IMG/VR virus record: IMGVR_UViG_2690316121_000008
Coordinates: 1-31,188 of that record
Strand: one strand, 5' to 3'
Source of the DNA: a virus
Taxonomy: Duplodnaviria; Heunggongvirae; Uroviricota; Caudoviricetes
DNA: 31,188 nt
The notes under the pieces are model-generated. The model had not been told where the DNA came from. It worked only from the letters and a program-made list of their open reading frames with translations, and searched no databases. Position numbers and translations under genes: made by a program. Shown piece by piece: positions 8,654 through 9,468 of this stretch. Positions within the stretch are counted from its first letter, which is position 1, and the number at the start of each line of letters is the position of its first letter.

Positions 8654-9468
8654 GTATGGAGCTGATGGTTAAAGCGATGAAAATTCGAGTGGGTAACCCA
8701 TTGCGAAAATTGGTTCTGATCAAGCTGGCTGATAATGCCAGCGATCAGGGTGAGTGCTGGCCCAGCTACCAGCATATTGCTGACCAGTGCGAGATTAGCA
8801 AACGTTCTGTGATGAATCATATTGCGGCCCTTTGTGAGTCCGGGCTGGTAAAAAAAGTCACCCGGAAAGGTGAAAAAGGTAACTCAAGTAATATCTATCT
8901 CCTTCATCTGGATGGTGCAGGAGATTCACTAGGGGGTAGTGCAAATAATTCACTATCTGGTGCAGCAAATTCACCATGTAGTGCAGGAGTTGCACCAGGG
9001 GGTAGTGCAGGAGATTCACCCAGAACCAGTCACTCTTTTGAACCAGTCAAAGAATCAGTCAATGAACCAATAGCTGTTGGTGCATCAGTTGATGAGTCCG
9101 TGCGAGTTCGTTCAAACCGACCGGAATACTCTCCGGAGTTTGAGCAGGCATGGCTGGCATATCCCAAACGTGCTGGTGGCAATTCAAAATCTGCAGCCTT
9201 CAAAGCCTGGAAAGCCCGTTTGAATGAGGGGGTAAACCCCGAAACCATGCTGGAAGGTGTGAAACGCTACGCGGGCTGGGTATCTGCGATGGGTAACAGC
9301 GGCACACAATTTGTGAAACAGGCTGTCACGTTCTTTGGTCCGGATCGTCATTTCGAAGAATCCTGGGAAGTTCCTGCGGTATCTGCAGCCAGACGCGAGG
9401 ACCCGTACTTCAAAGCCAGTTACGACAACGTGGACTACAGCCAGATCCCGGCAGGATTCAGGGGGTGA
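8650..9468 (+). CDS. Replication-initiator-like protein: N-terminal HTH domain, low-complexity Gly/Ser/Ala linker, C-terminal domain (AWLAYPKRAGG motif)
   Basis: GGAGG Shine-Dalgarno 7 nt before ATG 8650; N-terminal HTH (WPSYQHIADQCEISKRSVMNHIAAL) typical of phage replication-organiser proteins; iteron-like DNA repeats embedded in the linker-coding region. Confidence 0.6.
   Translation: MSMELMVKAMKIRVGNPLRKLVLIKLADNASDQGECWPSYQHIADQCEISKRSVMNHIAALCESGLVKKVTRKGEKGNSSNIYLLHLDGAGDSLGGSANNSLSGAANSPCSAGVAPGGSAGDSPRTSHSFEPVKESVNEPIAVGASVDESVRVRSNRPEYSPEFEQAWLAYPKRAGGNSKSAAFKAWKARLNEGVNPETMLEGVKRYAGWVSAMGNSGTQFVKQAVTFFGPDRHFEESWEVPAVSAARREDPYFKASYDNVDYSQIPAGFRG
8918..9075. repeat. Iteron-like direct repeats inside the initiator gene (putative replication origin)
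   Basis: ATTCAC core at 8924, 8948, 8969, (degenerate 8990) and 9014 with ~21-24 bp periodicity; duplicated GGGGGTAGTGCA and CAGGAGATTCAC; second set GAACCAGTCA / GAATCAGTCA at 9023, 9040, 9052. Confidence 0.45.

Follow-up and report, generated by a model that had tools for sequence, protein, structure and literature searches.

Sequence comparison points to a lambda-type replication origin, with iterons and a conserved 37-nt box, inside the initiator gene of SfV/mEp460/Stx-'Eru6'-type prophages

We have analysed a 31,188-nucleotide stretch of DNA (IMG/VR record IMGVR_UViG_2690316121_000008, positions 1 to 31,188; hereafter, the window), which is a lambdoid prophage of the SfV/mEp460/Stx-'Eru6' type. 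The window contains a gene for a replication initiator, whose product has a winged-helix N-terminal domain (N-domain), a linker, a helical C-terminal domain (C-domain) and a short tail resembling the end of Escherichia coli DnaT. In the part of the gene that codes for the linker, five iterons are followed without a gap by a 37-nt box (Table 1). Based on sequence comparison, we consider it very likely that positions 8915-9056 form the origin of this prophage and that the iterons would be binding sites of the initiator. A probable origin had been proposed here by an earlier sequence-only reading of the same DNA, and the proposal is supported by the identity of the initiator, by constraint at the DNA level, by covariation of the repeats with the recognition helix and by the layout shared with phages lambda and P22.

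The assignment of the gene relies on profile matches, on its position and on close relatives in phage records. Pfam HTH_36 matched residues 17-67 (E = 1.8e-11, 44.1 bits, cut-off 25), PHROG 270 'replication initiation protein' matched residues 3-271 (E = 4.9e-88), and 'O-like' PHROG families matched the N-terminal half; the NCBIfam search gave nothing above threshold. The gene occupies the position of O in the lambdoid early-right operon. Megablast against phage records showed 98-99% identity to SfV orf39, to the replication genes of mEp460, Ayreon and cdtI, and to several Stx2c phages, and the HTH_36 gene of Stx2a_WGPS2, the type example of the 'Eru6' region, has 98.3% nucleotide identity to it. 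In the AlphaFold2 model, which was built on a 15-sequence alignment and is confident for the N-domain and weak for the C-domain, the N-domain consists of four helices and a beta-hairpin wing (pLDDT 77-90), residues 91-156 are disordered (pLDDT < 50), where the DNA codes for a Gly/Ser/Ala-rich segment, and residues 162-229 form helices (pLDDT ~45-78). A Foldseek search of the PDB with the N-domain returned winged-helix folds only, including the N-domain of DnaD, a plasmid Rep-DNA complex and Orc1/Cdc6.

Within the predicted disordered linker, at nt 266-370 of the 819-nt gene and in frame, a repeat finder recovered five 15-bp near-palindromes of the form GTGCAnnnnnTKCAC, with start-to-start spacings of 24, 21, 21 and 24 bp. 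The 31-kb window holds five exact matches to this form, all of them inside this one 105-bp stretch. When at most one mismatch was allowed on both strands, 17 matches were found in the window against 5.5 +/- 2.6 in shuffled sequences, and none of 100 shuffles reached 17. The dyad of GTGCA and TKCAC around five bases is the form that would be expected for sites of a dimeric winged-helix protein. The last repeat directly abuts the box in the relatives inspected as well. When the whole array was folded as single-stranded DNA, the result was unremarkable (z = -0.9). The sequence-only reading had described at least four or five ATTCAC-core repeats about 21-24 bp apart, placed in the Gly/Ser/Ala-rich linker coding of an initiator-like gene, with duplicated 12-mers and three GAACCAGTCA-type repeats after them, and it had suggested a repeat-finder check. 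This description holds: the repeat finder returned five copies, four of which carry the ATTCAC core, as well as longer duplicated words (family D1, 8915-8953 / 8981-9019, 82% identical), and GAAYCAGTCA copies start at 9023 and 9040 in the box and at 9052, the third (9052-9061) running past the end of the box.

Table 1. Positions of the features discussed in the text, in window coordinates.
Feature	Position	Strand	Remarks
Integrase gene	1-1224		
cI-type repressor gene	6031-6705	minus	
Replication initiator gene	8650-9468	+	272 aa, 819 nt; Pfam, PHROG, megablast
Winged-helix N-domain coding	8650-8913	+	residues 1-88; recognition helix ~SKRSVMNHIAAL; AlphaFold2, Foldseek
Easily melted segment, left of iterons	8872-8901		no 30-mer of the window within +/-400 bp is less stable
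Iteron 1	8915-8929		GTGCAGGAGATTCAC
Iteron 2	8939-8953		GTGCAAATAATTCAC
Iteron 3	8960-8974		GTGCAGCAAATTCAC
Iteron 4	8981-8995		GTGCAGGAGTTGCAC; perfect 5+5 palindrome
Spacer before last iteron	8996-9004		CAGGGGGTA; with G5 tract
Iteron 5	9005-9019		GTGCAGGAGATTCAC; abuts box
Conserved 37-nt box	9020-9056		CCAGAACCAGTCACTCTTTTGAACCAGTCAAAGAATC; putative unwinding/helicase-entry element
Helical C-domain coding	9127-9340	+	residues ~160-230; motifs FExAWxxYPKR and AxKAW; AlphaFold2
DnaT-like tail	9439-9465	+	SQIPAGFRG, residues 264-272; 8/9 match to E. coli DnaT end SQIPPGFRG

Considering that all repeats of the window are in frame and encode a repeated peptide, the window alone cannot decide between selection on the DNA and selection on the peptide. 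We therefore turn to its relatives, which were collected via conserved N-terminal peptides or via the box and comprise 80 genomic loci and, later, 120 viral contigs, about 200 loci in total. Besides the viral contigs, their hosts include Enterobacteriaceae, Pseudomonas, Aeromonas, Shewanella, Marinomonas, Marinobacter, Vreelandella, Microbulbifer and Zymobacter. Arrays of three to eight GTGCAnnnnnTKCAC copies stand at the same gene position in many of these hosts. Among the class-A copies of the relatives, 29 of 202 are read in another frame and 35 of 202 are inverted, and the peptides that result from such copies are unrelated (AGDS, VQEI, ESPA). Of 158 intervals, 148 measure 21-24 bp; among these, 49 have a length of 22 or 23 bp, which cannot keep a peptide repeat. 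These variable frames, orientations and spacings indicate that selection acts on the DNA.

On the one hand, the repeats could be read as the mere trace of a low-complexity linker made of G-[AS]-[AG]-[DN]-S-[LP] units, or of recent slippage, having no function as DNA; the shared frame and repeated peptide of the five window copies, the predicted disorder of the segment and the unstable copy number would all fit this. On the other hand, the relatives keep the DNA motif in a second frame and in inverted orientation, 22- and 23-bp spacings are common, the motif classes follow the recognition helix and not the composition of the linker, and in the window repeats Ala is always GCA and every core Ser is TCA. 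An explanation solely by amino-acid repeat, which the sequence-only reading had named among the findings that would speak against an origin, is argued against by frames, orientations and spacings. We consider this explanation already largely refuted and extremely improbable. Overlapping open reading frames (8939-9073, plus strand; 8858-9019, minus strand) were also considered as a source of the constraint and were rejected, since the box is conserved to the same degree at each of the three codon positions and the repeats before it are wholly different from class to class.

The repeats change in sequence together with the recognition helix in the winged-helix domain, and loci lacking GTGCAnnnnnTKCAC carry other repeats at the same gene position. 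At least six helix-repeat pairs occur in the approximately 200 loci: SKRSVMNHI with GTGCAnnnnnTKCAC, SKRSVMRHI with GTGACACAGAGTCAC, GRSTVKSHV / ARSTVKVHI with GGGGCAGGAGCTGACC / GGGGCGGCAGATAACC, DRSTVRKHI with TGTAGGCCCAGAAAGCACA, SKSAVRxHI with CTGTGCCnnCAGATGGCA, and GHSTVRKHI with GTGCCACCAGATAGCAC. It was by covariation of this kind that the iterons in lambda, phi80, 82 and P22 were first recognised as sites for their initiators. Judged from the comparison of these loci, the repeats follow the helix and both they and the box are constrained as DNA.

The spacer in front of the last iteron has a feature of its own. Of the 86 loci that remain after dereplication at 90% identity, 74 have a G5 or C5 tract here, compared with 12-18 for the three other segments checked upstream. 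The tract is present whatever the iteron class, which suggests a structural feature that does not depend on the strand. In the window, a G5 tract was also noted in the spacer 8930-8938.

The number of iterons differs among close relatives. Near-identical proteins of 242-302 aa differ mainly in their linker repeat units, with about one to at least eight copies, and phage cdtI has eight iterons through a 66-bp duplication (L001, 3266-3436). The 'O' gene of Min27 (L204, 1183-1851) is also a member of the family, with GGGGCAGGAGCTGCCC iterons and the box. The annotated 223-aa product of this gene has, after the box, a low-complexity sequence unlike any C-domain class, and a large 'P' open reading frame follows; the 3' part of this gene may reflect a frameshift or a mis-annotation.

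The box is the most constant part of the locus. It is found at 29-37 identical positions of 37 in 81 of 82 loci, all iteron classes included, and over the 86 dereplicated loci the information content is 1.7-2.0 bits at most positions for about 38 nt and falls to 0.5 bits or less from +40, which is where the unrelated C-domains begin. The third codon positions of the box have a consensus fraction of 0.995, compared with 0.62 in the codons of conserved N-domain residues of the same genes. Single codons are fixed for Arg (AGA, 61/61), Ser (AGT, 63/63; TCT, 61/61) and Glu (GAA, 65/65 and 63/63); the conserved Arg-19 of the same proteins is encoded by six different codons. Variants in the box are often non-synonymous (Thr/Ile, Phe/Ser/Leu, His/Asn). 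Accordingly, judged by its codons, the box is under constraint at the DNA level. The GAAYCAGTCA copies are not significant by their count across the window (five against 3.5 expected, with 28 of 100 shuffles reaching five); their significance comes from being clustered and conserved across species. In the reciprocal direction, an exact degenerate scan of viral contigs with the box only gave 79 distinct analysable loci. Three or more repeats stand within the preceding 170 nt in 78 of these, and the N-domain signature is present in 78, indicating that N-domain, iterons and box form one module. RNA structure was rejected as an explanation of the box, which folds less well than shuffled sequence (z = +1.0).

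Nearest-neighbour stability calculations place the box at a weak part of the duplex. Averaged over the loci, no 30-mer within +/-400 bp is less stable than the box (z = 1.8). In individual loci, the weakest 30-mer begins at -1 to +30 relative to the start of the box in 33 of 78 and at -159 to -115 in another 25. The window belongs to the latter kind, its own weakest 30-mer starting 148 bp before the box. We regard the chances as about even that the box is the site of opening or helicase loading. It might instead have been conserved as a patch of homology that allows exchange of C-domains at a module boundary, or because its peptide PRTSHSFEPV is a protein-interaction motif. Conservation does stop exactly at the start of the unrelated C-domains, and the box is only moderately AT-rich. 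A peptide motif is, however, argued against by synonymous sites that are fixed where the amino acids vary (T/I, F/S/L, H/N), and keeping 38 bp as a homology patch from E. coli to Pseudomonas and Shewanella would need direct purifying selection; moreover, the position of the box and its low duplex stability fit the site of the unwinding region in lambda. Conservation as a patch or as a peptide therefore appears unlikely to us.

Directly 3' of the box, at ~9057-9065, lies a mosaic junction (loci L003-L203). The C-domains that follow the box fall into at least seven recurrent kinds with no relation to one another, besides several singletons, and these kinds tend toward their own downstream partners, namely a DnaC-like gene with DnaB, a lambda-P homologue, DnaB alone, or a 268-aa protein. 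The C-domain of L021 is 40% identical to that of lambda O (E = 2e-23), and the kind in L013 is followed by a lambda-P homologue (Pfam Phage_lambda_P, E = 1.6e-66), so that a lambda-O-type C-domain and a downstream P-type loader occur in some relatives; the window has neither. A further kind is followed by the 268-aa protein, whose function is not assigned, and in L062 a DnaB gene comes directly after the initiator. In many relatives, genes for a DnaC-like ATPase (IstB_IS21) and a DnaB helicase come after the C-domain of the window type. Since the same cassette stands in front of different C-domains, including that of lambda O, the comparison suggests that N-domain, iterons and box together can functionally trade places with the front half of lambda O. 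Thus the C-domain looks like an adaptor to whichever helicase-loading system is used, and the C-domain of the window is presumed to connect to such machinery.

Pfam and PHROG searches detected no helicase, loader or primase gene in the window. In the complete SfV genome, orf39 is the sole gene annotated for replication, and no helicase, loader, primase or origin is annotated there. The remark in the sequence-only reading that no DnaC/P-type loader is obvious nearby is therefore extended to the whole window and to the annotation of the whole SfV genome.

The last residues of the initiator may offer a clue to its partner. The protein ends in ...DYSQIPAGFRG, compared with ...PDSQIPPGFRG in E. coli DnaT and ...PDNHIPPGFRG in another DnaT chain (PDB 2ru8_A, 9zbt_D, 6aep_A), and it thereby shows the feature of DnaT tails, PD-x-x-I-P-P-G-F-R-G. 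The resemblance is confined to the tail. DnaT ('primosomal protein I') was rejected as the identity of the domains: phmmer and profile HMM searches against the PDB returned no DnaT chain, Pfam returned none, and the hhalign probability was 1%. Accordingly, the labels 'primosomal protein I' and 'DnaD-like' in some records and in PHROGs are unsupported for the domain, the match to DnaT being limited to the tail. Searches of all PDB chains gave no meaningful match, whether made with the complete protein, with the last 43 residues or with a profile of 29 C-domain sequences.

We compared the type of tail with the 4 kb downstream of every box-carrying initiator. GFRG tails occur in 25 distinct proteins, and in none of these cases does a phage DnaB gene follow; 21 are followed by nothing of the kind and four by a DnaC-like gene only. 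Tails with aromatic ends (..DCNW, ..ENLNF, ..KLTF) are followed by a DnaC-like gene and DnaB in 28 of 34 cases. The four GFRG proteins with a DnaC-like gene (L021, L047, L099, L158) have a C-domain of the lambda-O type, unrelated to that of the window, and end in PDNTVPPGFRG or PDNSVPPGFRG (three) and PDNAIPAGFRG (one). This pattern of tails and downstream genes hints that the tail engages the helicase system of the host. Recruitment of host DnaB-DnaC by the DnaT-like tail is a tentative proposal. Equally tentatively, helicase-less phages may have copied the DnaT tail (IP[AP]GFRG) onto two unrelated C-domains, by which host DnaB would be loaded at an origin opened at the box. A 2026 paper on the preprimosome structure states that how DnaT recruits DnaB/DnaC is not known, and a term search of that text found no mention of the C-terminal residues of DnaT (PMC13377028). 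If the proposal is true, the phage tails point to how DnaT hands DnaB/DnaC to the restart fork.

By analogy with lambda O and ori-lambda, we infer that the initiator binds the iterons, that the box unwinds and that host DnaB-DnaC is engaged by way of the tail. During initiation, winged-helix dimers of the N-domain would bind each 15-bp iteron, whose two half-sites, GTGCA and TKCAC, are separated by one turn of the helix. As the sites are 21-24 bp, or two turns, apart, the dimers would lie on the same face of the helix and could assemble into an O-some-like complex. Such a complex would stress the adjacent weak and invariant box, which may then open. The C-domain and the tail would bring in the replicative helicase, with ...SQIPAGFRG as the candidate contact; because the phage encodes no DnaB, DnaC or P, this helicase would probably be that of host DnaB-DnaC.

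The repeats could also bind the initiator and serve autoregulation, copy control or handcuffing, with the real origin placed elsewhere in the phage. Iterons of plasmids are established to have such control roles, variants with one or two repeats persist, and for this phage family the case for an origin is built from sequence. Four observations stand on the other side: no other motif cluster was found in the 31-kb window or in 6-kb relatives, the array is always joined to the weakly paired box that is constrained as DNA, the origins annotated for lambda and P22 have the same arrangement, and the cassette exchanges with the C-domain of lambda O. A control site with its origin elsewhere is, in our opinion, quite improbable.

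Several points weigh against the origin and its proposed mechanism. No evidence of binding or of origin activity for this phage family was found in the literature. The relatives represent one subfamily because of the N-terminal peptides or the box by which they were collected. BLASTP gave no significant match of the window protein to either lambda O or P22 gp18, so that the mechanistic analogy rests on architecture. At ~59% A+T in the window, the box is much less extreme than the AT-rich region of lambda, and this moderate richness weakens the case for unwinding. The C-domain of the window has no detectable relative in Pfam, among PDB sequences or in DnaT, and its AlphaFold2 model is weak. The correlation of the tail with downstream genes comes from few independent events, since the window-type GFRG proteins are one close clade; the independent events are this clade, the more divergent L005 and the four proteins with a lambda-O-type C-domain. 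Finally, variants with only one or two repeats exist, indicating either that few iterons suffice or that these prophages are defective. For lambda, two iterons and the AT-rich region are reported to be sufficient in vitro, in work cited in PMC7466680.

The surroundings of the initiator gene are those of a lambdoid phage. A CII-like gene and then an Ash/Rha-type regulator lie between the cI-type repressor gene and 8650-9468, and on the 3' side follow PerC-like, LexA-DBD, RusA, KilA/Ant-like, DUF968, Q, terminase and tape-measure genes. A scan of 6600-10300 found no sigma-70-like promoter and thus gives no support for an internal promoter. A terminator-like hairpin with a T-run is present at 8858-8873 on the minus strand, left of the iteron array and within the part that codes for the wing. 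Upstream, a 78-aa open reading frame at 8417-8653 (PHROG 1153, function unassigned) overlaps the initiator start codon by 4 nt (ATGA) and is retained in SfV (orf38) and cdtI (orf45); it may act with the initiator as a translationally coupled partner. Beside the integrase gene, a 345-aa open reading frame on the minus strand (1319-2356) had no PHROG match at E <= 1e-5 and may be a cargo (moron) gene.

Our analysis provides a candidate origin and initiator for very common enterobacterial prophages, namely SfV, cdtI, mEp460, the Stx2c phages and the Stx 'Eru5'/'Eru6' phages. In Stx phages, replication drives toxin output, and recent work regards nothing as known on how Eru-type phages replicate. 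Phage records annotate only a coding sequence at this locus, and papers on the 'Eru' regions of Stx phages class the replication region without identifying an origin (including PMC8951638). Full-text literature searches returned no description of the iterons, the box or the tail; the review of phage replication modules by Weigel and Seitz from 2006 might mention the module. The at least six helix-iteron pairs, together with a constant 37-nt element and exchangeable domains that would recruit the helicase, represent a natural specificity experiment from E. coli to Pseudomonas, Vibrio and Shewanella, and the set of pairs could serve the design of orthogonal replicons. The box and the DnaT-like tail provide leads on the helicase entry site of phage origins and on how DnaT engages DnaB/DnaC.

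Among known systems, iteron plasmids (RepA, pi, TrfA) also have winged-helix initiators that bind direct repeats beside an unwinding element. Their iterons are intergenic and their Rep proteins have two winged-helix domains, whereas the iterons of the window are intragenic and the model of its initiator shows only one such domain; the Pfam matches of the window protein include no plasmid Rep family. The 'Eru6' region of Stx2a_WGPS2 has the same gene with the same neighbours, including a Rha/Ash-type regulator upstream. The Eru regions were classed by gene content only, with no origin or iterons given, and the same paper states that nothing is known on the replication of Eru phages (PMC8951638). 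DopC of Cellvibrionales/Oceanospirillales is likewise an O-like protein with an HTH_36 N-domain, lacking the C-domain of lambda O and linked to DnaT through a C-terminal resemblance (PMC5509034). In contrast to the window gene, it is a domesticated chromosomal gene in which its authors found no iterons, and the resemblance was reported for its C-terminal domain (PMC5509034), whereas in the window protein it concerns the last nine residues only. In P22, the origin is annotated inside gene 18 (nt 353-497), and the relative L062 has its DnaB gene directly after the initiator, as gene 12, for a DnaB-type helicase, follows gene 18. The iterons of P22 (xxATCGGTAAAAC) and its AT-rich tract are unrelated to the elements of the window, and the window phage has no helicase gene.

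HHpred links lambda O to HTH_36 (PMC5509034), and a remote homology of the window N-domain to lambda O is possible; Pfam gave no Phage_rep_O match at E <= 0.01, and the window family is that of HTH_36 / PHROG 270. In lambda the origin is placed in the initiator's own gene, between a DNA-binding N-domain and a C-domain, with an easily opened segment downstream of the iterons. The probable origin of the window has the same place, with the box as the candidate for such a segment, and in both phages the iteron sequence and the N-domain vary together among relatives. The likeness to the lambda iterons in gene O had been noted in the sequence-only reading, and it is borne out by the lambda and P22 records, which annotate the origin at the equivalent gene position. 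Lambda has four 18-bp iterons (O nt 349-433) with spacings of 20, 24 and 23 bp, and the window has five dyad-symmetric ones of 15 bp and of other sequence, also about two turns apart. Some relatives of the window gene come closer still, having a C-domain like that of lambda O or a lambda-P homologue downstream. The AT-rich tract of lambda is replaced by a near-invariant 37-nt box in the window family, and the window has no P gene, a C-domain of another family and a DnaT-like tail. In summary, the layout is of the well-known lambda type, and what is unusual here is the highly conserved 37-nt box and a solo initiator with a DnaT-like tail.

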